Shown one piece after another: positions 8,316 through 41,200 of a stretch of 64,000 nucleotides of DNA; position 1 is the stretch's first letter, and every line of letters begins with the position of its first letter. The notes under the pieces were generated by a model. The model saw only the letters and a program-made list of their open reading frames with translations. It was not told the origin of the DNA and searched no databases. The DNA is taken from the NCBI GenBank assembly GCA_000004985.1, contig GG738925.1. One strand, given 5' to 3'. A program made the translations under genes and the position numbers. This DNA is from Naegleria gruberi (Eukaryota).

Positions 8316-10617
8316 TTATCTAATGTAACAATATTTGTACCAATATCTTTCGAATATTTCAAATGTTTCTGGAAGAGATTCTTTGAACCATTGATAGAAT
8401 ATAGGATTGTGTCTACTCAATACAACAACCTTTGATTTGATGCGAGGTTCGATATCAGTAGGAATCTTTTCCTTAGATGTCAAATATTCGAAATGAGTGG
8501 CATCTGCTGTATAATCAAACAATATTCTCAAATTGCAAACATCTTGATTTGGATTAGAATTCAGCATTGAGGTCAAGAACTTTCTATCCTCTTCGCATTT
8601 AGGTTGAATTCGTTTCAGGTCTTTAGTCATGAATCCATTCGAAATACTAGTGCTTTGTAAATTCATGAGAAATTGCTCAGGATGAATTGCACTATTAATC
8701 ATCTTGGCTCCACATGTTATTATAAGTGGTTTCTGATCCGATTTAATTGGTTGTCCCAATAATAATCCATCCCACCTCAAATTAATATCCAAACTTGTTC
8801 CATAAAATGAGCTAATATCAATATCTGTAAATTTGTAATCATATTTGTGAGATCCAATTAATACTTTCCAAATATCCTCACTTTGAATAAGCATTAAATT
8901 AGGGTTGAGTGTAAAATTGCAAAGAAATGATTCTTCACTATTTGATGATTTGAAAAGCACATGATCTGTGAGTGGTTTTCCATTCAATTCTCTTGAAATC
9001 TTAGCCATTACCAATCCACAAACTATTTCAATAGCAAATCCTCTTTCATTTGTATCAGATCTTTTCAAGACTTTCTTAAGCCAACTATTGGAAACTCGAA
9101 TGAGATCCTCCAAATTTAGTGCCTTGTTAACTGAGTACATTAGTAGCGGCTCAGGTATCTTGTAATACTGTGAAGAATCTGATAATGAAGGCACTGTAAA
9201 AGCCAGCTCATTATTAGTAATAAAATTGAGAAGAGACAGGTGATTCACTCCTCTTGTTACCAGTCCCAATTGATGATTCAACTCGTCTACGTTGATAAAT
9301 CCCCTTAGTGAAAGATTTTGCATCACATCATTTTTCAAAGATGCCACATCCATATCTTTCGTATTCATATCGTTGAGACATTTCTTATACATTGAATAAT
9401 GTGACTGTATAACATTCTCCAGAGATGATGTAAGCATTCTAGTTGACCACTCTTCAAGTGAAGTTTGTGATGAATCAAATGGAGGACAAGCTATAATACT
9501 TTCCAACCATTCAAATAATATTCCTCTTCTTCCCTTTGCCAAACTGGCTAAAATTTGCACATACGAATCAGGTAAAACCTTTTTCACATTCAACAGCTTA
9601 TCAATAAAATTGTAAACCTCACTGGAACCAACCACTCCATATCCTGAGATAATTTGATAATCTCTCTTCAATTCTCCAGTCAGGTGTCTAATTGAGCTTT
9701 GTGAAATATTACTACCAGATATAATAGCACTATTGTGAGGATAGGAGAGAAGACTATTGAAAACCTTTCCAATCAAAGTGGAAGGATCCAGCTTACTCTT
9801 GGTTTTACCATCATTTAGAGTTCCAATCACTCCCATATCATCAATGCCGAAAATCAAAGGTTTTTGACCAATTTTTTCACGAATAGTCCTTTGTAAATAT
9901 TTGAATAATTTGTAAGATTCAAAATGCACATTGGCTGTCTCGTATTCCAGTAATTGTTTGAAGACACTATTGAAATGTTCTCTTCCAATTGCACTATTTA
10001 CATAAATCCACCAATTAAAAGGAGTAAAATTATTTGGATTGTTTTTCAAAAGGGTTTGCATTAGGATGAGTTGAGAATTATAAATCATGAACAAGAGTTC
10101 AGTTGAATTGTGCCGACTCTGTTTCTTACCATGTGTCGACTCTACCTCTAAGAAACTCGCTAATAAGGTTAGAATGGCATCACTTGCCAGACCCAGCTCA
10201 ATATTCAACAAAAATGCCGTATTAGTACAAGCAATGTGTGAAATGGAGAAGGATTTTCCACTTCCATGGGGCGAATTGAGTATGTACATGGCTCCTTTTC
10301 TATCACTTTCCTTAATCTTGGTTTGTAAATATTGATGAATGTTTAGAATTTCATTCTCAGAGTTTCGTTCCTGAAAAGATTCAATCAATAGTGGATAGAA
10401 CCTCCAATCTAATCCAGAACTCGTGAATGGCCAAGGATTTTTAAACAAACCTCCCAACTGTTGTTTCAATTTCTCGTCTTTCAAAATTTCACACAATCAG
10501 AACTATTTTCAAAACAACTTACTCTCACTCTTAAAAGCCATTTCCTCAATTGATTTCAATTCTGAGAATTTCTTTACAATATCCACACCACTCGTTACTC
10601 TATGTATCACATAATCC
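8316..10617 (-). CDS. Large P-loop-like protein of unknown function (2 exons)
   Basis: The 726-aa ORF 8316..10496 has no ATG at its 5' end (TTG). An upstream exon, MDYVIHRVTSGVDIVKKFSELKSIEEMAFKSE at about 10617..10522, ends at a gtaagt donor. An AG acceptor at about 10476 (intron about 10521..10477) restores the frame into EKLKQQLGG.... A Walker-A-like SPHGSGKSF and a Walker-B-like LIFGIDDMG are present. The exact splice coordinates are approximate. Confidence 0.5.
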
Positions 10618-18270: not shown

Positions 18271-18389
18271 GGCTACGGCCATATCACGATTCATGCACCT
18301 CATCCCGTCCGATTTGAGAAGTTAAGCATCGTCGAGCCACATCAGTACTGAGGTTGGAGACAACTTGGGAACCTGTGGTGCTGTAGTCT
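18271..18389 (+). rRNA. 5S ribosomal RNA gene (copy 1)
   Basis: 119 nt: ggctacggccatatcacgattcatgcacctcatcccgtccgatttgagaagttaagc...gtactgaggttggagacaacttgggaacctgtggtgctgtagtct. Helix I pairs 5' ggctacggc with 3' gctgtagtc. The conserved CCGTCCGAT, GTTAAGC, AGTACT, GGAGAC and GGGAA blocks are present. A T5 Pol III terminator follows immediately. Confidence 0.85.
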
Positions 18390-19618: not shown

Positions 19619-19935
19619 AAACATTGATTTTGAGTAATGAATAGCTGTACCCAAACCATTTTACAAGTATTAAATTTTTCCAATAATCACCTTTTAATTC
19701 AAAACCATTAAGAGTCAAATTGCATTCAATTCACGAACAACAAGTTAAAATTCAGTATTGCATGTACTTACTAAACATGAACCAATTTTGTGTCCAGAAA
19801 CAAAAATCGGTTCATCGAAAGAATTTCTTTGCAGAAGAACTACTTTCTAAAAATATATAACTCTCAAACAGTTTAAAGCAAGGAACTGTTTTGAATTCAA
19901 GAAAAACCATTAAGAAAAACAGGACAACAAACATA

Positions 19936-20394
19936 ATGCAATTATTTGTCAAGACACTCACTGGAAGAACTATCACTTTGGAGGTTGAATCTAATGATTC
20001 AATTGAAAATGTGAAAAGAAAAGTGCAAGATAAGGAAGGAATTTCACCAGATCAACAAAGACTCATCTTTGCTGGAAAACAATTGGAAGATGGCAGAACT
20101 ATTAATGATTACAACATTCAAAAAGATTCAACTCTTCATTTGGTGTTGAGATTAAGAGGAGGAATGCAACTTTTTGTAAAAACTTTAACTGGAAAGACAA
20201 TCACTATTGAAATGGAATCGAATGATACTGTTGAGAATATGAAACAAAAGATATTTGATAAGGAAGGTATTCCTTCAGATCAACAACGATTGATTTATGC
20301 CGGTAAGCAATTGGAAGATGGAAGAACTATTGGTGATTACAATCTTCAAAAGGATTCAACTGTGCATTTAGTATTGAGATTGAGAGGTGGTTAA
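19936..20394 (+). CDS. Two-unit polyubiquitin-like gene with divergent repeats
   Basis: Two 76-aa units each end in LRLRGG, and the stop follows the last GG directly. Unit 1 is [76 protein letters not shown]. Unit 2 is [76 protein letters not shown]. The ORF extends 15 codons upstream in frame ([15 protein letters not shown]), so start-site choice is uncertain. Confidence 0.85.
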
Positions 20395-20661: not shown

Positions 20662-20780
20662 GGCTACGGCCATATCACGATTCGTGCACCTCATCCCGTC
20701 CGATTTGAGAAGTTAAGCATCGTCGAGCCACATCAGTACTGAGGTTGGAGACAACTTGGGAACCTGTGGTGCTGTAGTCT
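20662..20780 (+). rRNA. 5S ribosomal RNA gene (copy 2)
   Basis: 119 nt, identical to copy 1 except for one substitution (gattcGtgcacc). A T6 terminator follows. Confidence 0.85.
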
Positions 20781-21822: not shown

Positions 21823-21893
21823 CTCGATTGCCGGGAATTGAACCCGGGTCGCCAGAGTGACAGTCTGGAATGCTACCACTATACCACACCCGA
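21823..21893 (-). tRNA. tRNA-Asp (anticodon GUC)
   Basis: The reverse complement is tcgggtg tg gtat agtggta gcat t ccaga ctGTCac tctgg cgac ccggg ttcaatt cccgg caatcga g. The D arm is AGTGGTA and the T arm GGGTTCAATTCCC. The 5-bp anticodon stem has a 7-nt loop with GTC at positions 34-36. The acceptor stem has one G-A mismatch (5:68). No CCA is encoded. Confidence 0.7.
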
Positions 21894-30743: not shown

Positions 30744-31274
30744 ATGCAAAAATCATCAGTTGCCAAATTTTGTGTTGGCATGGTCACTTCTCCAGTACAA
30801 AAAGCCGAATTTATTGCTCAAGCCTTGCTGAAGGATAAGCTCGTAGCCTGTGTAAATATTGTTCCACAGGTGAAGAGTATGTATTGGTGGGAAGATAAAA
30901 TTTGTACCGATGAAGAGGCATTGTTAATTTTGAAAACTCAGGTTGATCTGAAATCACAAGTTGTGGATTGTGTAAAAAAGAATCATGAATATAAAGTGCC
31001 AGAGGTGATTTTTATGGATATTATGGATGGGAATGAAGATTATTTGGATTGGATTAGAAAATCAACAATTATCGGAAAGAAGTTGGAAATACAAAATTCA
31101 TCTACAAATGAAAATACTATAATTGATAAACCTGCTGCTGTATCTTCCACGTTTAAATGTACTAAATGCCAGAGCACTCAGTGTACTTATTACCAATTGC
31201 AAACTAGATCATCTGATGAACCTATGACAACTTTTATTACTTGCCTAAATTGTGGAAATAGATGGAAACAATAA
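30744..31274 (+). CDS. CutA1 divalent-cation-tolerance domain fused in frame to a C-terminal TFIIS-type zinc ribbon
   Basis: Residues 1-110 are CutA ([40 protein letters not shown]...[24 protein letters not shown]). Residues about 137-176 are [40 protein letters not shown]. This matches the TFIIS domain III ribbon ([35 protein letters not shown]) nearly residue-for-residue. There is no stop or convincing intron signal between the two parts. Confidence 0.7.
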
Positions 31275-31338: not shown

Positions 31339-32403
31339 TTAAATTTCTTTGAAATCTTGCCAATCTTGATCTTCACTTTCAGTAACGAATTGATAAAAGA
31401 TTCTTTTGCCAATATTAATTATTAAAAGTCTTTTCGGATCTGGATTATTTTCGAGTTCATAATTGAGGATTTGGTACTGAGCTTCTTGGAATATCATGGA
31501 TATAGGTTCGAAATAGTAAGTCTGTGGAGTATACCCTCTCACATACTCAACAGGGAATGGAAGTTTTTGGTTCTTGTAAACACTGGCCAATCTAGCAACT
31601 GACCATTTTTGCAAAATATCAGAGAGGGAAGTATTATCCACAACTTTTAACATCTGATCAAGTGGACTCTTATTTTCTCTCCTCTGGAATAGTATTCTCT
31701 CACCAAGAGTTTCACTCTCAATGCCACTAAATCTCTCTTTGGAGAATGAAACATATCCAATGTGAATATGCTTAAATTCAACAATGGTATTCAAACATTC
31801 GATAAATAAATCAACATAGCCATTTCTATTTGTTTCAATATTGAGAGCTAATTTTTCTGTAGAGGATGGTGAGCTTCTTAATTGTTTATCCATAAAGGTT
31901 GGATGATTTTTCAAAATTCTATTCAATTCATAATTGAGCATGAATTTCAAAGATGATTCTCTAAATTCTGCAAAATCTCTCGTATGGAGAGTGTCTATTC
32001 CATTCAATTTAATAATTTGTAAAGCTTGTCGTATAACTAACTCTGTTTCGTCCAATTCAATTCGTTCATTTAAATAAATATTCACACGATCCACAGTGAT
32101 TATTCTATTATTCGATTCATTTCCCTCATCACATGGCGTATCTAAAATTTCAATTTTTAAATAATTTTTAATTTCCTTCTGATTAATATTATTCATTTTC
32201 CTATTCAAATATTCGACAATATCCGCTCCTCTTGTTTCCATCATGAAATTCAAATAATCATCATCCGATTTGATCAGAGCACAATATTGATTAGATATTA
32301 TTTGCAAGATAACCTTCTCATTAAATAAATTACACAATAGCATTTTGCACTCCGAACCATTTCTTTGAATCGCAAAATCCTGCCCCTCATCATTCGAAAG
32401 CAT
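31339..32403 (-). CDS. Hypothetical 354-aa protein; its start codon abuts the retrotransposon insertion site
   Basis: Uninterrupted minus ORF; I recognise no family. The ATG (plus-strand cat 32401..32403) overlaps the 5' target-site duplication of the LINE. Confidence 0.5.
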   Translation of the reverse strand: MLSNDEGQDFAIQRNGSECKMLLCNLFNEKVILQIISNQYCALIKSDDDYLNFMMETRGADIVEYLNRKMNNINQKEIKNYLKIEILDTPCDEGNESNNRIITVDRVNIYLNERIELDETELVIRQALQIIKLNGIDTLHTRDFAEFRESSLKFMLNYELNRILKNHPTFMDKQLRSSPSSTEKLALNIETNRNGYVDLFIECLNTIVEFKHIHIGYVSFSKERFSGIESETLGERILFQRRENKSPLDQMLKVVDNTSLSDILQKWSVARLASVYKNQKLPFPVEYVRGYTPQTYYFEPISMIFQEAQYQILNYELENNPDPKRLLIINIGKRIFYQFVTESEDQDWQDFKEI

Positions 32404-32417
32404 TTTTTTCTGATTTC
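32402..32417. repeat. Target-site duplication (5' copy) of the LINE insertion
   Basis: atttttttctgatttc is identical to 37829..37844. Confidence 0.8.
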
Positions 32418-32834
32418 GACTTTTAAAAAAATGCCTTTACATGACCGCCCTCCTGATCCAATAAATTGTCTGCAGCTGACTAACAGGATTCTTGTGTTAG
32501 AACAAGCAGTCGATTCATATCGGATTGAAAATATTCGTCTTCAAAAATACATGGAAACTATGCAAAAGATTTACGACAAAATAATGTTTAATCCGAGTTT
32601 GTACAAGACAAAGATGTAAAGGTTAAAGTTGATAATATTAATCAAGAAGATACTTCTACCACTAACATTTCTACTGATTCATTTAAAAAACCTACTTCAG
32701 AAATCCAAAATATTAAGTCAACTCCCCAAAATAGAAATCAACAAATTCATTCCATTACTAGTAATATTAAACCAAAATATGAATGTAGTAAGAACCCTAT
32801 TGAGCAAAATACCAAACTACAACTTACTCCATAT

Positions 32835-34070
32835 TTGGATATGGTGAAGTATCACCCTATAAAAGCTCAACCAAGTATCAAACAAACTATAGCAAAACAA
32901 ATCAAAATGAAACGCTCAATTTCATTCTATGGTAAAAAACCAGTCAAGCAAAATAAGAAATTCGATTTGACACATTCACTTAATATTATCTGCTATGAAA
33001 GAATTAATAACAAATTCATGGAACAAATAATGGACATCTTTGGGGAATTTGCCACCATTAAAATAAGACCCCAAACTAGTAATGTCATTAATCTTCATTG
33101 CAATAGTAATGACAATTATATTCTTTGCAAAGATATGCTTGATAGTGTACACAATGATTTAATATTGAAATTCTTCCCATCACCTGCTGTATTCGAGCAT
33201 AGCTTGTACGCTCTAACTCACTCTACACACATATATTCACAACACATTGATATGATTAAATCACTAATCAAACACTCAGTTAATAACGATAATACTATAC
33301 TTATCTCCCAAATGTATACAAACCAATCACATGGTAAATATATAATTAGAGTTTCATACGAAAACGAAGATGTGTGCGAAGTTATTAGAAAGAAGCTTAA
33401 TTTAACTAATTACAAATCTGTTGAACAATTGCGTAATGAAACTCCTACTAATGTTTCAGAATGTTTATTTCCACCTACCTTTACAAACAAGGAAATCATC
33501 GATGGTGTTACTCGTGCATACGAACGCATTAAAAAAGATTTCAATACTAACCAATGCATGATAACTGAATCCAAAAACAAATCCAATACCACTACCTTTA
33601 AATTATGTAAAGTCGTCCATTCAAATATTGACGAAATGAATCTATTTATTGACAAGAAAATTGTTCTCAATACCAAACAAAACATTACTGATGGAACCAG
33701 TTACTGTTTCGTACCATCTATTAAACAATTAGATGAAATAATTGAAAGAAAACAAAAACAATATCCATTTCTAACTAACTCTAAATTACCGGAAGTAACT
33801 AATCCTATGATCAATCCTATACAATCTAACGATAATACCAGTTCAACCACTAATTCTGTAGTTACTCCTACTATTAATACAACAACCAATCTATTTGAAA
33901 CTAGACTATCTAATATTGAAACTGAACTGCGTGATTTTAAGAAAGCATTAGCTGATACAATGGAACTTATTGACAAAATCTCCCATTATATAAATAATAG
34001 TACTAATAATTCTATTATGCAAGATGATGAAGAATCAAAAAGCTCATCATCTTGTACTCTTTCTAAATGA
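32835..34070 (+). CDS. LINE ORF1 protein (Gag-like, coiled-coil near C-terminus)
   Basis: 411-aa ORF. Its open frame extends upstream without an ATG to about 32594 and overlaps the short upstream ORF in another frame. The C-terminal region has heptad-like LFETRLSNIETELRDFKKALADTMELIDKI. Confidence 0.6.
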   Translation: MDMVKYHPIKAQPSIKQTIAKQIKMKRSISFYGKKPVKQNKKFDLTHSLNIICYERINNKFMEQIMDIFGEFATIKIRPQTSNVINLHCNSNDNYILCKDMLDSVHNDLILKFFPSPAVFEHSLYALTHSTHIYSQHIDMIKSLIKHSVNNDNTILISQMYTNQSHGKYIIRVSYENEDVCEVIRKKLNLTNYKSVEQLRNETPTNVSECLFPPTFTNKEIIDGVTRAYERIKKDFNTNQCMITESKNKSNTTTFKLCKVVHSNIDEMNLFIDKKIVLNTKQNITDGTSYCFVPSIKQLDEIIERKQKQYPFLTNSKLPEVTNPMINPIQSNDNTSSTTNSVVTPTINTTTNLFETRLSNIETELRDFKKALADTMELIDKISHYINNSTNNSIMQDDEESKSSSSCTLSK

Positions 34071-37000
34071 GTAATTATAGTAATTTACGACTAGCGTGTT
34101 ACAATGTAAACGGCCTGTATAAACATGCTAGTAAGAAATCGGTTACACCAGAAGTGAAATCAATGTGTCTTCATCATAAAATACACATGATTTCGTTAAC
34201 CGAAACTCATTTAAATACTCCTGATCTAGAATATAAAGTTAAAAATTCAGGAACAGGCTATATATTATTTAACTCCTTAATGAATACAACGAAAGGAAAA
34301 AAAGGGACGGCTGTTATGCACTTCCTTAACAACCCTCACAAGAGAAATATTACTAATATCAATCTAATTCCAGGTGTTCTTCAATGGACACGATTCGAAA
34401 GCAAAGGTATACCAATTAATATTTTCACTCCATATCTTAGTGGAAGAGTTGATGATAAAGAAAATGATGTTGAAGCCATGAACAGTATAACAAATGCAGT
34501 ACTGACATGTAGAGATGAACATGTCATAATTAATGGAGATCTTAATATCAATACCATTAATCCTTCAAACGGTAGAGATAAAGAATGGTGCTGGCTATTT
34601 AATCTACTCCAACTAACAGAATATAAGACTAATAATAAGACTTACATTAGAAGACAACAGAATAGAATCACCACTTCAAGATTAGACCACATTTTCGTGT
34701 CTAAAGATATTAAGGTTATCAAAGAAGAACTCCTTCCACCGCTCACAAGTAATGATCACATCCCTTTTTACATTGATATTGAATTCAAATCACATTTAAA
34801 TTGGAGATCATATATTGGTAAGAAGAAAAGAGAAGAAATGATCAAAGAGATAAATACGTCAAATGCCAATACATTTCAAGAATTAAATGCAGAAATACAA
34901 AACAACATTGCAAAATATGGAACCAAAGTTGACAGACTTGGTGGTAGCATTATTTCCTCCATATTTAAAGGTAAAATTCGTAAATTAGAAAATAAGATTA
35001 TGGGTAAATTAGAAGACCCAAATGTTGGACTTAATGAAATATCAGAACTACAAACAATTCTTAAAGAGACTCACATCCAATCATGTAAAGAAATCAAAGA
35101 ACAATTAACTGACAAATATAACAATAGTCACGCCTCCCACATGTATCAATTTGATAGAAAACTGCATTCTAAAGAAATTATCTGGAAAGAATTGCCATTT
35201 GGAGAACAAGAAATTTTAGATTATTTTTCCAAAAAGTTTACAACCTCCAATCAAACACCAACCTTTATGCCAAGTCCATCCACTATCACTTCAGGTCCTA
35301 GAGATATAGGTCGGATTTCATATAGAGATGTAAAAGAAACCATTAAAAGAATGAAATCGAATACACCAGGACAAGACGAAATTTCATTAGATATCATCAA
35401 GGGCTTAAAATTAGAGAAATTAGCTTTAATAGTTGAAGAGTTTAACAAATGTTTAACACAAGGAGATATCCCCCAAGAATGGAAACACGGTTGGGTTAAA
35501 CTGATTCCAAAGCGAGAAGTTAAAACATTAGGAGATATTAGACCCATCACAATACTACCAATATTTTATAGAATCCTTTTCAATTTAATCGCCCACAAAT
35601 TATGTGAATGGGCTAGCTCTCAGATTAATATGAGACAACAGGCCTTCATAAATAATAGAAATACAATGAACCATGGAATAGTACTTTCCTCCCTGGCCTT
35701 GAAAACTAGACGAAGAACATTTATATTAGTCAACCTTGACATTGAAGGTGCCTACGACGCAGTGGAGATGCCGGTTATTAGGATGGCCCTTAATCATTGT
35801 AAATTCCCAACACCACTAACTGATTTTATAATTAATGCATACAGCAATCACAGTTTACAATTAGAAATTGACAAACATCTATCAAATAACTTCACAAAAA
35901 CACGAGGAATTCCTCAAGGTTGCCCATTAGCACCTCTTATTTACGATTGTATTACACAACTCATAATAGACAAAGCAATAGACCAATGGCAACTACCAAT
36001 AGAACCATCTGAATTGAATGCAAACGAAATTGGTCTTTGTTGTTTCGCTGACGATATGAATATAGTATGCGACAGATTCACAAATTATAATGGAAGACTA
36101 GATAACATCGACGACTGGTTATCTCAATTGCTTTTCAAATTAAATGCAAAAAAGTCAATTGCCACTCTCCTTCCCACAAAAAGCAAAATCATACCAAAAA
36201 TCAAACAAGTGCCAATTCCCATTCAGAAAAATCTTAGAGTTCTCGGACACTACCCTTGGGAAGATAAATTGGTCAAAGAAGATATTGAAAGCAAGATAGC
36301 TAAATTCAATGAATCACTGAAATATTTCCCAATACTCAAACTTCAACCCCATAATTTAAGACAAGTCCTTCATGCTAAAGTGATTAGTTTATTTACACAT
36401 CTATCCAAACTTAATGTCATTCCTCCATCACTGGTATCAAGAATAGATATTTGCATTAGAAATGTACTCAGAACAAAGTTAAAACTAGACAGAACCACCA
36501 AAACAGCTTTTTTCCACCTACCATTAGAAGAAGGTGGACTCGGTGTTCCCTCAATTGAAGAATTTACAGACAGACTTAATTTAAGAACTCTCTCCTTAAT
36601 AGCAAATTCCAATAACAAGTTAGTTCAGAAAGCTTTTAAATTTGGAATTAGTCATACCAATGATAATAGTAATAACATTTTCATTCAATGGATGTCAATA
36701 CTTCAGAAATATAATTTAGATTTCAAAAAGAATCATACCAAATTCAGATTAAAGAAAGTGAATGAAACCAATAGATGCTTTATTATCCATACAGACGGAT
36801 CCAAGCTTGCAGGTAAAACAGGTATGGGTATTAATATATATGAATCCGGTGGAAGGTTATCACCTTGTAAAAGCCTTTCACTCCGTATCAATAATGAATA
36901 CTCTAATAATGTTGCAGAAATAGGAGCAATTATCACTGCAATGAAACTACTTCCAAATGGAACAACCGCTAGAATACACACAGATAGCAAAGTTGCAATA

Positions 37001-37795
37001 GATGTCCTATCCAGAAAATACAAAGGAAACTTTCTCCCTTTCAAAACTGAATTTTTCAATATCCAAAAAGAAAAGAATATTTCAGTTTATATAATCAAAG
37101 TTAAAGGACATGAAGATAAGGAAAATATAATAGTAGATCGCCTTGCGAAAGATGGAACTGAAAGAGATAAGATCTTTGATATCAAATCCTTACTAACCAA
37201 CCAATATTTACTTATGAAAAACGATATTGTGATCTTTGATTGCAAAAGAATGACTGTAAATCGCCAACTTAAGGAGATGCACGAAGCAATTGATAGTAAT
37301 CCCAACTTTATTCCAAACCAAAGCTGGTCATCAATTAATGTAGCCTACCTCAAGTCACGACTGTCACCTAAAACCAAATATCAAATTTGGCGAAACGCTT
37401 CAAATTCTCATATCAAATATACACAGAAGAAAGATGAATTGAATCCAACCTGCTCAGATTGTAATTGTCCCTCAAATTTAGAACATTACATACATGAATG
37501 CCCCAGACTAGACAATCAAAGAAGATATTGTCAAAATAGATTAACAGAAATACTTGATAGACCTGAGTGTTCACTCTCCCCTATCCAAGAAATTCCTTTC
37601 CAATACTCATATGTGCTATATTTCCATCACTCAGGCATAACCTTTTTTGAGAATGAATATATAGATAAGATCCCCAACCATAACGTCTTAAAGAAATGGC
37701 CAGAGATCCAAGCTGCTATTTCCAAATTTATTGGAAGAGCCTTCCTTATTTATCAAATTGATTCAAAACCTATTTACAAACGAAGTGAGAAATAG
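34067..37795 (+). CDS. LINE ORF2 polyprotein: AP-endonuclease, reverse transcriptase, RNase H, C-terminal Cys motif
   Basis: 1242 aa. The N-terminus has APE/EEP-like LRLACYNVNGLYKH...ISLTETHLN...INGDLNIN...SRLDHIFVS. The RT region has the FADDMNIVCD (Y/FxDD) motif. The RNase H region is CFIIHTDGSKLAGKTGMGI...AEIGAIITAMKLL...IHTDSKVAIDVL...VKGHEDKENIIVDRLAKDG. The C-terminal motif is CSDCNCPSNLEHYIHECPRLDNQRRYC. Confidence 0.85.
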   Translation: MSNYSNLRLACYNVNGLYKHASKKSVTPEVKSMCLHHKIHMISLTETHLNTPDLEYKVKNSGTGYILFNSLMNTTKGKKGTAVMHFLNNPHKRNITNINLIPGVLQWTRFESKGIPINIFTPYLSGRVDDKENDVEAMNSITNAVLTCRDEHVIINGDLNINTINPSNGRDKEWCWLFNLLQLTEYKTNNKTYIRRQQNRITTSRLDHIFVSKDIKVIKEELLPPLTSNDHIPFYIDIEFKSHLNWRSYIGKKKREEMIKEINTSNANTFQELNAEIQNNIAKYGTKVDRLGGSIISSIFKGKIRKLENKIMGKLEDPNVGLNEISELQTILKETHIQSCKEIKEQLTDKYNNSHASHMYQFDRKLHSKEIIWKELPFGEQEILDYFSKKFTTSNQTPTFMPSPSTITSGPRDIGRISYRDVKETIKRMKSNTPGQDEISLDIIKGLKLEKLALIVEEFNKCLTQGDIPQEWKHGWVKLIPKREVKTLGDIRPITILPIFYRILFNLIAHKLCEWASSQINMRQQAFINNRNTMNHGIVLSSLALKTRRRTFILVNLDIEGAYDAVEMPVIRMALNHCKFPTPLTDFIINAYSNHSLQLEIDKHLSNNFTKTRGIPQGCPLAPLIYDCITQLIIDKAIDQWQLPIEPSELNANEIGLCCFADDMNIVCDRFTNYNGRLDNIDDWLSQLLFKLNAKKSIATLLPTKSKIIPKIKQVPIPIQKNLRVLGHYPWEDKLVKEDIESKIAKFNESLKYFPILKLQPHNLRQVLHAKVISLFTHLSKLNVIPPSLVSRIDICIRNVLRTKLKLDRTTKTAFFHLPLEEGGLGVPSIEEFTDRLNLRTLSLIANSNNKLVQKAFKFGISHTNDNSNNIFIQWMSILQKYNLDFKKNHTKFRLKKVNETNRCFIIHTDGSKLAGKTGMGINIYESGGRLSPCKSLSLRINNEYSNNVAEIGAIITAMKLLPNGTTARIHTDSKVAIDVLSRKYKGNFLPFKTEFFNIQKEKNISVYIIKVKGHEDKENIIVDRLAKDGTERDKIFDIKSLLTNQYLLMKNDIVIFDCKRMTVNRQLKEMHEAIDSNPNFIPNQSWSSINVAYLKSRLSPKTKYQIWRNASNSHIKYTQKKDELNPTCSDCNCPSNLEHYIHECPRLDNQRRYCQNRLTEILDRPECSLSPIQEIPFQYSYVLYFHHSGITFFENEYIDKIPNHNVLKKWPEIQAAISKFIGRAFLIYQIDSKPIYKRSEK

Positions 37796-37828
37796 AATCT
37801 GAATAGATTCGCCAAAATGCATTAAAAG

Positions 37829-37844
37829 ATTTTTTTCTGATTTC
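37829..37844. repeat. Target-site duplication (3' copy) of the LINE insertion
   Basis: atttttttctgatttc is identical to 32402..32417. Confidence 0.8.
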
Positions 37845-38281
37845 TTTTTTTCACTGGAAAGTGGTGTTGATTGTTTCTTGTTAGAACTAATAAGAGATTG
37901 CATACTGATGAAGTGAACATTCAAAACTCTTCAAAAAATAACATAAGAGTTCTTAATATATCAAGCGTATTGATATGATTCTTAGAGCAATAATACACAA
38001 TGATAATACTAATTCCACCATTTTAATAAGTGAAAGTTGGGCATGATTTATTTCAATCAATTCATTTTCCTTAATCTAACAACTTTCCAATTTTCTTTTT
38101 TGAAAATTGAATTAGAAACAATATTTTGCATTCCAACGTACAACCTCCATGTACGAATGCTCAAAATGCGCTCAACATTCACTTGAAGGTTTAAGCGTAC
38201 ATCATCTCCCTCAGAGTGTAGGAGAAGGGAAGAAGAAGGAAAACAGGTGTCGCACTCCTAAATTTTCATCCTTAAAAAAAA

Positions 38282-41200
38282 ATGATCAAGAAGAAGACAA
38301 GTGCTAGCAGTAAAAATCTGAGCGAGATGGCTACTGCTGCTGTTCAGAGTAATCAGTCTTCTTCATCGTCATCTTCATCATCAAATGCAGCAAATTTAGT
38401 ACCACCAAGTAGTAGTAGTGGTTTGAAGCACAAGTATCATTTTAAATTTGTGGTTAGTGCTTTGGAAATCTTACCCGAAAAACCAACAACATCAAATATT
38501 AATAACAATCACATTTCATCAAAGGAAGTCAAAAAAACAACATCTATTGGTACCTTCTTTAAACAATTCACTGAATCACCAAAGATTCCTAGAACAGCAT
38601 TATTGGAATGGAAACGAAATTCAAGAAAGAGAGGAAAACTTCCTGTTTGTAGATTTCAAAAATCCATTGATCAAAACAAACCAGACCACTTCATCTTTTA
38701 TACAAGGGATGAAAAGGCTTTCGAATTCAATACAAGATTGACAACAACCAGTAAGTAGTAGTAATTTTAAATGGTTACAGCAACAACCATCATCCTCTTC
38801 ATCATCTTCTAAAATAGCTTCTACTTCCTACGGTTACAAGGATAAATTTTTGAGAATGTCTCTTGAGCAATTGCAGGATGAAGCATTTACTGCTTCCCCA
38901 GCTTCTAAACTGCTCACATCAAAGAAGAGAATTTGTGAGGAGGAAATTAATTTGGCAGAAGCTGTATCAATGAATGCAATGGAAAGAAGTCTTGTTTTAA
39001 TGGAAATTACACAAAATGGCCTTTCTCAAATCGAGTCAACAATTGCTGCTAAAAAGCTAAAAAAGAAAACAGGAATCTTTCCGATTAAGTTAGGAGGAGA
39101 TGACCAAGACCAGGAAATTGTGGCCTATCTCGTTTTGAGATATACTATCAGTTGTTCAACAAACGACACCCAACCTAACCTATCAACAAGTATGGTATCT
39201 AATGACATCACTGATGATACTGAAGTGAGTATGACAGAACCAGAAGTTTCCGATGATGAAGAGGATGAAGAACCATTCAAAAGTCCTAGAATTCTAGGAA
39301 CAACTCCTCGTTCAGAGTACAAGGATAATGTAAATACACCTTTCGGATCACCAAGCCAACAAGAAATTTTCCAAAAGCCAGTGGTGAATGAAGTTGAAAA
39401 CAATTCACTTCAAAAAACACAAAATCAATCAAGTAACAATTTGGAATCAATTACTCAAACAAATGGTAGCACTGAAAAGAAAATTGAAACGGAACAACCA
39501 AGTATCATTGTAGAATCAAACACGAATAATACTATTGTGGAAAATGTCCAAGAATCAACAGTTAGTTCCGAAAAGATTGAAAACCCACTTGCAAAGACTG
39601 AAGATGAGGGATCTAACTTTTTCCTTCTCGATGAAGAGGAAGAGCAGGAGGAACCAAAGCAACTGGAACAATCTCCAGTTATGATAATGGAAATGCCAAC
39701 AATGACAACAACAGAGGAACAAAAAATCGACCCTTCTCAACCACCATCACAAGAGCCTCAACAAGAACCAGAAGAAATTGAGGTTGTAGAACAAGTACCT
39801 GAATCAACTAGTCTTCCTATTGAAGAGAATGTCACAGAGACTGTCACACCTCAACAAGAAGAACCAGAAAAACCACAAATCACCCCTTCCCAAGTTGAAG
39901 TTGAGTCACCAAAGAAAGATAGTATGATTGTAGTGCAGAAGGAACCTGAAGAATCTCAATCATTCTTAGATTTGAGTGATGAAGAAGAAGAAGAAGAAAC
40001 CAAACCTGAACAAATTAACGAGCCAATTAGTGTAAATACAACTCAATCAATCAGTTCAACAGTAGAGGAAGAGCCTTTGAAGGAAGAACCAGGACTTGAT
40101 GAAAAACCTCTCACTATTGAGACATCAGAAAAGCAAAGTGAAGAAGAGTCTGATTTTGATATCATTCTTTCTCCATACGAAGAGTCAAATTCTACTAACG
40201 ATGCTAACCTGGCCACTAATGTAGTACATAAACCAGAAGAGCAAAAACCAGTCGAAGAAACTCAACCTATTGCAGATATCAAAACTTCTGATATTGTCAA
40301 TAAGGACTCGACAGAAAAGTTGCTCACCCCTGAAGATCATCATGATCATTCCTATTCTAGCGATGAAGATATGTTTACTCCTGTATATAGTTCCAACAAT
40401 ATTTACGAATCAAAAATTCCAGATGTTGAAGAGCCAACAATCCCAAAACCTAACAATCTTCACACCAAGATAATTGAAAGTGTTCTAAATGAAAACAAGG
40501 CAAACGAAGAGACTGAATCACTTACATCTTCAGAATACAATGAGATACAAAGAGACTATAGCGAAGCACTTATAGTACTTGATTTACAAAAGCAAAAAAT
40601 TATTGAGCTGGAAAACTATTCAAATTCATTCCATCCATTGGTTGTTTCATTGATTTGGGGTTTAATTTGCTCCTTGTTGTACTCTGTTTCACAAGTAGAG
40701 GTTTCAGCCATTAGACCAATTTTGGTTGCTACATTCTACACTATAGTAGTATACTTTGGTGTACAATTAACTCGTGCCATGAAGTTCTATAGCTATGGAA
40801 CTCATTTGACTAATTACCTTAAGGAAATAAGATTTTTGAAAAAATTAGAATCCATGCCAAAGAAGGATATTGGAACACTTGGCAACTATCTCAAGAAATA
40901 CATTACTAGCGAAGACTTTAGATTTTTGGATGATATTTTCAGATCAGCATCTTGGGGAGCCCTCTTTGCTCTAGTAGCTCTCATCTTGAAAGCTCTATTC
41001 AGTTCGGGTGACGAACAACCAAATCTTGGAGATGATAATGCTATTTACAGATTTTTCGTTAGTGGAATTCTTTACAAGTGTTTGTACAGATCTGTAACAG
41101 AGGAATTATTTGAAAGGTTATTCTGTTTGCTGCTTTCTGTTTTTATCTTTAATGAATTCAATTTGACCATCAAGATCAAGTACATTATTGACAAGTATAC

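Follow-up and report, generated by a model that had tools for sequence, protein, structure and literature searches.

A LINE family of Naegleria amoebae that probably targets the start codons of host genes

Structure of the element and its insertion site

The 64-kb stretch of Naegleria gruberi contig GG738925.1 analyzed here (called the window below) contains a long interspersed nuclear element (LINE) that belongs to a family whose junctions suggest that it probably inserts at the start codons of genes. The body of the element carries ORF1 and ORF2 as its two open reading frames (ORFs) and lies directly beside a minus-strand ORF of 354 amino acids, which we refer to as the host gene (Table 1). 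The structural examination revealed that the element is bracketed by an exact 16-mer, ATTTTTTTCTGATTTC, which is present in two copies in the window and nowhere else in it. Since the bases outside the two copies are unlike on both sides (C versus G on the left and G versus T on the right), the length of the repeat is exactly 16 bp, and the pair is among a handful of exact direct repeats of at least 16 nt with a spacing of more than 30 bp in the window. The original prediction had described this bracketing repeat, its overlap with the ATG of the host gene (CAT at 32401-32403), and a recent insertion that parted the gene from its upstream region, and all of these hold: the duplications are perfect, and the displaced region begins at 37845. 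The block from 32418 to 37828 is a full-length, recently inserted LINE of the apurinic/apyrimidinic endonuclease (APE) type with genuine 16-bp target-site duplications.

At its 5' end the element starts with GAC, as the N. fowleri copy L002 does, and the A-run in its leader immediately before the ORF1 ATG reproduces the A(n)TG context of the target. The 3' end carries no poly(A) tail but terminates in ...GCATTAAAAG, and the relatives, which end in ...CTAATTAG, ...ATTAATAA and ...ATTTTTTCA, show neither poly(A) nor a simple 3' repeat. Some known LINE clades likewise have no poly(A) or simple 3' repeat, and therefore the missing tail does not exclude membership in the LINEs. Neither long terminal repeats nor terminal inverted repeats were found inside the element, and the 64-kb window contains no further LINE copies or fragments. 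If the insertion was a simple one, the empty allele is expected to read ...GAAAGC-ATTTTTTTCTGATTTC-TTTTTTTCAC.... Before the insertion, the host gene shared ~450 bp of divergent intergenic DNA with a plus-strand ORF that starts at 38282 in an A9TG context. No Pfam family was detected in the host protein. It has homologues in N. fowleri and N. lovaniensis with 39-42% identity, and its C-terminal two thirds are well conserved.

Table 1. Features of the element and its insertion site (positions in the window)
Feature	Position	Strand	Remarks
Host gene, 354-aa ORF	31339-32403	-	ATG is CAT 32401-32403, in A7TG context
5' target-site duplication, ATTTTTTTCTGATTTC	32402-32417		covers A and T of the host ATG
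LINE body, 5,411 bp	32418-37828	+	5' end GACTTTTAAAAAAATG, 3' end GCATTAAAAG
5' untranslated region (UTR), 13 nt, GACTTTTAAAAAA	32418-32430	+	A-run immediately 5' of the ORF1 ATG
ORF1 N-terminal segment, 62 codons, helix-rich	32431-32619	+	closes at TAA; out of frame with the remaining ORF1
ORF1 main segment	32594-34070	+	open from ~32594; first in-frame ATG 32841; TGA 34068-34070
ORF2, 1,242 aa, unbroken	34067-37795	+	APE, reverse transcriptase (RT), RNase H, CCHC
3' UTR hairpin GAATCT-GAAT-AGATTC	37795-37810	+	18 nt upstream of the element 3' end
3' target-site duplication, ATTTTTTTCTGATTTC	37829-37844		
Displaced former upstream region of the host gene	37845-38281		

Junctions of related copies at host start codons

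In order to compare the insertion register among relatives, five 5' and six 3' junctions from N. gruberi, N. fowleri and two further assemblies were collected. Four N. fowleri copies (L002, L021, L022 and L023) were fetched with their flanks, and each of them is positioned head-to-head on the annotated start codon of its host gene (Table 2). At five of five loci, comprising the window and the four N. fowleri copies, the duplication starts at the A of the host CAT. Target, orientation and register are the same throughout: all five 5' junctions lie on C followed by AT(6-9) of the host ATG, and after all six 3' junctions the sequence continues into A+T(6-9), including the 3' junctions of L001 and L003, which continue into A+T7-8. 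The three complete N. fowleri copies (L002, L021 and L022) have perfect duplications of 16-17 bp, so that, together with the window copy, perfect duplications are found in four of four complete insertions, while L023 has lost its last ~49 nt and the 3' flank. When the empty sites of the three complete N. fowleri loci were reconstructed, the host ATG was the first ATG, 1-4 codons past an in-frame stop, indicating that these are true start codons.

Mutual identity among the N. fowleri copies, which occupy different genomic sites, is 97.6-99.5%, indicating that this subfamily was recently active. Since the flanking genes are unlike, these loci are not segmental duplicates of one insertion. The original prediction had taken the location at the start codon for a single event; the recurrence of the register at four N. 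fowleri loci indicates instead that the ATG is the regular target of the family. In every copy the 5' leader comprises 12-13 nt followed by the A-run and ATG, and the copies vary by 0-2 extra G or A residues at the 5' end, which are typical of full-length LINE 5' junctions. Beyond the 3' duplication, the next gene lies on the strand of the element in four of four complete insertions (window 38282; L002 10013; L021 8996; L022 8099), so each insertion split a divergent gene pair sharing 0.36-1.0 kb of intergenic DNA.

Table 2. Bases at the 5' junctions of the five loci
Locus	Host gene	Base before duplication	Duplication	Following bases
Window		C	ATTTTTTTCTGATTTC	GAC...
L002	TELO2-like	C	ATTTTTTTTTGATATTA	TGACGCAAAAAAAATG (element side TGAC...)
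L021	Img2	C	ATTTTTTAGGAGGATG	AGCCCTTAAAAAATG (element side AGCCC...)
L022	205-aa gene	C	ATTTTTTTTGTTGTTC	GAAGCCC...
L023	Trm112p	C	ATTTTTTCGTCTTGTT	GAGCCC...

Distribution of the target motif and proposed insertion mechanism

We then examined how often the target motif occurs. The sequence ATTTTTTT occupies 2.3e-4 of the strand positions of the window (30 sites, 19 of them, or 63%, preceded by C), and this rarity excludes a repeated coincidence of the junctions. A6+TG occurs at 21 sites in the window, 14 of which open ORFs of more than 100 aa, indicating that an enzyme nicking this motif would mostly hit start codons. An A-run context of the ATG is also found in some N. fowleri genes that are not targets. 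Based on these observations, we consider it likely that the LINE family inserts by target-primed reverse transcription (TPRT) at a short A-run ATG motif, and that the preference of its endonuclease is what puts the family on start codons.

In the mechanism that we propose, the endonuclease would nick the strand reading 5'-A(6-9)T^G-3', which is the sense strand of the host gene, between the T and the G of the ATG, and the element RNA, whose 3' end is not polyadenylated, would be copied into cDNA from this end with the freed T-3'OH as primer. A nick in the other strand would follow 16-17 nt off, and fill-in would yield the duplication of 16-17 bp, consisting of AT and 14-15 nt of the leader. 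Because an immediately preceding A-run is common at Naegleria start codons, such a nick would place the element head-to-head on start codons, and the insertion would always be antisense to the host gene. The host ORF would thereby retain its ATG and 14-15 nt of native leader, while the remaining upstream region would be shifted by 5.4 kb and the orphaned copy on the promoter side would read ATC.

Several observations concern the 3' end of the element RNA. In the young N. fowleri subfamily, the 3' UTR comprises only 11 nt and ends in A(A/T)ATTTTTTCA (L021 8611-8621, L022 7541-7551), and the AUUUUUU within it is exactly complementary to the AAAAAAT-3' end of the nicked target. This stretch could assist in placing the RNA on the target, or it could be left over from the flank of a master copy. 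The 18-mer with the hairpin is identical in the window and in L001 (5237-5252), although their ORF2s share just 52% identity, and L002 (~8948-8962) has a different hairpin with a 6-bp stem at 17 nt from its 3' end. No hairpin is present in the young N. fowleri subfamily, and a scan for the 18-nt hairpin motif returned 16 chance matches without ORF2 homology. The conserved hairpin weakly suggests a recognition signal for the RT.

Domain organization and relatives of ORF2

The original prediction of an uninterrupted ORF2 with APE, RT, RNase H and Cys-motif regions, which overlaps ORF1 by ATGA (34067-34070), was borne out by matches to APE, RT and RNase H profiles. In Pfam searches, RVT_1 was matched with 92.9 bits (aa 480-728; nucleotides 35504-36250), with the FADD motif at aa 660-663 (36044-36055), and RNase_H (PF00075) with 52.8 bits (aa 905-1031; 36779-37159). 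A CCHC motif, CX2CX7HX4C, follows C-terminal of the RNase H domain at aa 1129-1145 (37451-37501). The two APE families scored 24.3 and 20.8 bits with the single sequence, slightly under their cut-offs; a profile of the ORF2 N-termini of the family matched the L1 endonuclease variant 2v0r with E=2.5e-8, as well as members of the exonuclease III family. The APE domain spans ~aa 12-231 (34100-34759), and its catalytic residues E46, D158/N160, D207 and H231 are invariant across the family; in the window ORF2, D230 of the SNDH motif is located next to H231. The window ORF2 looks functional.

The closest solved structures for the RT are those of R2 and of L1 ORF2p (E=1e-16 to 1e-20), to which it is roughly equidistant. 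ORF2 relatives with 40-60% identity were found in N. gruberi (at least two other loci), N. fowleri and further assemblies, and relatives with 26-27% identity in Willaertia magna. By its sequence relatives, the family is one of heterolobosean amoebae, with members in Naegleria and distant relatives in Willaertia. Remoter matches cover the RT region only at 23-30% identity, and clade assignment by nearest neighbours fails since they are a mixture of R2-like proteins with a zinc-finger N-terminus and proteins with APE and RNase H. A scan of JGI metagenomes with an RT alignment returned no relatives, and an exact-protein look-up of the window proteins and the N. gruberi models P0001, P0004 and P0020 gave no match. 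L003 and L004 are contig-truncated or interrupted copies; the metagenomic copy L004 ends after the RNase H domain and adjoins a piggyBac-like transposase on the opposite strand (DDE_Tnp_1_7, E=8.6e-14; L004 2820-4113).

Parts of an 813-aa N. gruberi "predicted protein" match the window ORF2 with 100% identity, and this annotation indicates that the LINE was evidently left unmasked before gene calling. The public model of 34067-37795 is devoid of the ORF2 stretch that carries the RT domain.

Split reading frame of ORF1

In contrast to ORF2, ORF1 of the window copy is distributed over two frames, whereas the relative L001, from a Logan assembly, has a single continuous ORF1 of at least 517 aa. 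The N-terminus of the window ORF1 (MPLHDRPPD...) aligns with that of the continuous L001 ORF1, the homology to L001 spans the break between the two window frames, and the homology to L001 and L002 reaches upstream of the first in-frame ATG of the main segment. The simplest reading of these alignments is a frameshift inside the overlap at 32594-32619, most simply a 1-nt deletion at ~32605-32612 at ACAAAG. We also considered programmed frameshifting and rejected it: no slippery heptamer is present at 32594-32619 and the N. fowleri copies interrupt ORF1 elsewhere, so mutation is the simpler reading of the split. It should be noted that misassembly, and not real mutation, could in principle account for the apparent frameshifts of the N. 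fowleri copies.

With its ORF1 frameshifted, the window copy is probably not autonomous, and the earlier description of intact ORFs in a possibly still active element goes too far: ORF2 is intact, while ORF1 is probably frameshifted relative to L001. Neither in the window copy nor in L001 did ORF1 match a Pfam family or contain a CCHC motif, and a single-sequence AlphaFold2 model of ORF1 was unusable, with a predicted local distance difference test score (pLDDT) of 39.5. In the N. fowleri copies L022 and L023, ORF1 has a shared in-frame TGA (2844-2846 in each), which is missing from L021 through a 3-nt deletion. This TGA splits ORF1 of L023 into 152 and 347 codons, and the second segment of L022 is broken further. 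The shared TGA may reflect either descent from a defective master or an ORF1 made by stop-codon read-through.

Alternative explanations

Here, we need to consider several points that weigh against sequence-directed insertion at start codons. The junctions are few, as they were reached via annotated proteins rather than in a genome-wide survey, the empty sites are reconstructions from the flanks and no empty-site allele was obtained, and the 3' ends of the element RNAs show no consistent homology to the primer. In addition, recognition of A(n)T^G is not separated from that of A(n)T^N, as 63% of the motif sites are preceded by C and five of five would then arise by chance with a probability of ~0.1. 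It is also conceivable that the state of the gene 5' end, such as open chromatin, the initiation machinery or a tethering factor, directs the targeting, and that the A-run is merely a local cleavage preference. All five hosts are real genes struck at their annotated start, the far-side neighbour is divergently transcribed in four of four complete cases so that each insertion is located in a bidirectional promoter region, and an element with a 5' UTR of only 12-13 nt may rely on its landing place for transcription. However, the register does not shift by a single nucleotide between the loci, which speaks for a readout of sequence, about two thirds of the A6+TG sites are gene starts anyway, giving five of five a probability of ~0.13 under pure sequence choice, and a tethering domain was found in neither ORF1 nor ORF2. 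From these five loci, we regard targeting by the state of the gene as unlikely. A different doubt concerns the window locus itself, where the ATG may be an internal Met rather than the start codon, despite its A7TG context. The reconstructed empty site contains no stop for 30 codons upstream, up to another in-frame ATG, and the extension, MFTSSVCNLLLVLTRNNQHH, loosely resembles the N-termini of the orthologues (a hydrophobic stretch followed by QHH/HHH) and would bring the length nearer to their 422-437 aa; moreover, no N. gruberi gene model for the 354-aa ORF was present among the homology search results. The element would then have landed 30 codons inside the coding sequence at a Lys-Lys-Met (AAAAAAATG), and the split host gene would be a null or N-terminally truncated allele. 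On the other side, the N-termini of this protein family are poorly conserved, which makes the resemblance a weak one, the upstream ATG has no A-run while that at 32403 lies in A7TG as many gene starts of the window do, and the ATG struck at the three testable N. fowleri loci is an unambiguous start. We consider an internal insertion at the window locus possible but doubtful.

Insertion at A-run start codons also has to be compared with the view of the original prediction, in which the window copy is an ordinary, fully intact and autonomous LINE that has no site preference and came to lie beside a start codon by chance. The perfect duplications and the open ORF2 of 1,242 aa with all catalytic motifs agree with that view, but ORF1 is in two frames compared with the continuous ORF1 of L001, and the ATG register is repeated at four independent N. 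fowleri loci, with the A+T-run at two more 3' junctions, while the motif occupies only ~2e-4 of positions; we find this view very improbable. Even less credence is due to the idea that the 16-bp repeat is a chance match of low-complexity sequence and that the ORFs are those of a decayed or horizontally acquired RT gene and not of a mobile element. The 16-mer is indeed T-rich, and T-rich words are common at 33% G+C, yet its only two exact copies in 64 kb lie exactly at the ends of the ORF block, the same arrangement recurs at three other loci with different 16-17-mers, and nearly identical N. fowleri copies are present at different genomic sites, so that we practically dismiss this idea.

Comparison with known LINEs

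In the Drosophila I factor, the order of the ORF2 domains is APE, RT, RNase H and a C-terminal Cys-His motif (PMC2881922). The Naegleria LINE shares with it, and with the RNase H-bearing LINE clades of this layout, the two ORFs, the same ORF2 order, including an RNase H of the PF00075 type, duplications longer than 10 bp and the lack of a true poly(A) tail. On the contrary, the ORF1 of the Naegleria LINE has no gag-like CCHC knuckles or Pfam family, its 3' end has no TAA repeats, and it differs in its A(n)TG specificity. No named group lies nearer to its RT than R2 or L1 do. The architecture resembles that of the I factor, and the endonuclease is nearest to that of L1 (L1-EN).

The nearest analogue in behaviour is Zorro3 of Candida albicans, a member of the L1 clade, which targets short A-tracts, themselves over-represented near genes, and has a very short 5' UTR with an A-run a few bases before the ORF1 ATG (PMC1965478). 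It also has poly(A) at both ends and between the ORFs, no duplications, a zinc-knuckle ORF1 and no RNase H (PMC1965478, PMC3956500). The two elements are alike in the A-tract target, the A-run at their own 5' end and the APE endonuclease of the L1 type. They differ in that the A-tract lies on the sense strand of Zorro3 and on the antisense strand of the Naegleria LINE, and Zorro3 shows no fixed register with an ATG. The possibility of a Zorro element, a guess from the 33% G+C and the yeast-like look of the sequence, is excluded by the poly(A) ends, the missing duplications and the zinc-knuckle ORF1 of Zorro3, and by the homology of the window sequence to Naegleria. As for the L1 clade including Zorro, the Naegleria LINE has no L1-type or zinc-knuckle ORF1 and no poly(A), and a canonical RNase H is present.

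Human L1 inserts by TPRT, its APE endonuclease nicks at the boundary of a homopolymer run (TTTT/AA), and its duplications are ~7-20 bp long. TPRT and a nick at a run boundary would be common to both elements, and L1-EN is the best solved-structure match to the Naegleria endonuclease. However, the T-run of L1 primes on poly(A), whereas the primer of the Naegleria LINE would end in A(n)T-3' and its RNA has no poly(A). L1 also has no RNase H and an L1-type ORF1, and the RT similarity to L1 reaches only E=1e-16, no better than to R2.

Site-specific LINEs of the APE type include R1 in 28S ribosomal DNA (rDNA), TRAS and SART in telomeric repeats, Keno and Mutsu of the Tx1 clade in small RNA genes, and Waldo, Mino and Kibi in microsatellites. 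As in these elements, the nick site would set a precise and strand-specific register with reproducible junctions and duplications of fixed length, but their targets are multicopy "safe havens", in contrast to the start codons of single-copy genes. TRE5 and TRE3 of Dictyostelium, which integrate at fixed distances from tRNA genes, are similar in being LINEs of a compact protist genome with position-specific integration near genes. The landmark of the Naegleria LINE is, however, the ATG, and since the only tRNA gene of the window (21823-21893) is 10.5 kb away, TRE-like targeting of tRNA genes, which had been raised in the original prediction, is excluded. To our knowledge, all known site-specific LINEs use multicopy or dispensable targets, namely rDNA, telomeres, spliced-leader or small-RNA genes, microsatellites and tRNA flanks. 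We found no description of LINEs from Naegleria or Heterolobosea, or of start-codon-specific LINEs, in the searchable literature, Repbase being outside the search. As a transposon insertion, the window copy is real and ordinary, and it also points to a target specificity that is probably new among site-specific LINEs, themselves a known class.

Other features of the window

The window also contains two 5S rRNA genes on the plus strand (18271-18389 and 20662-20780; Rfam scores of 100 and 98 bits), which are 2.4 kb apart. The tRNA gene mentioned above is a tRNA-Asp(GTC) on the minus strand, and together with the 5S genes it adjoins a 228-nt tandem duplication at 19935-20390. At 30744-31274 on the plus strand, a 176-aa ORF with an A9TG start context encodes CutA1 (aa 13-106) and a C-terminal TFIIS-type zinc ribbon (aa 137-175). 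This ORF would represent either an unusual fusion or a read-through across two genes or exons.

Implications for host genes and for the family

For the host gene of the window, the original prediction had proposed that it may be silenced, transcribed from within the element or knocked down. Perfect duplications and a mutual identity of 97.6-99.5% fit young insertions that are quickly purged and fit tolerated insertions equally. One possibility is that the insertions are strongly deleterious and short-lived, which would account for the small number of copies and for duplications that are perfect throughout; the other is that the element makes up for the displaced promoter. The latter leads to the more speculative suggestion of a dedicated start-codon homing lineage, which would deliberately insert between the T and the G of A-run ATGs in single-copy protein-coding genes. 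It would persist there because the ATG and leader are restored by the duplication and because a compact bidirectional promoter at the element's 5' end serves both the element, with its 5' UTR of just 12-13 nt, and the displaced host gene. We consider such a lineage rather improbable. If it existed, hosts such as the TELO2-like gene, Trm112 and Img2 would remain expressed, and the family would pursue the reverse of the "safe haven" strategy on which all other known site-specific LINEs rely.

For Naegleria genetics, the family would be a natural source of start-site insertion alleles, and the finding flags gene-model errors in the N. gruberi annotation. The APE endonuclease, with its proposed unusual specificity for A(n)T^G, may be useful for structure-function work. 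A nick site at the translation start of ordinary genes would represent a new kind of LINE target.

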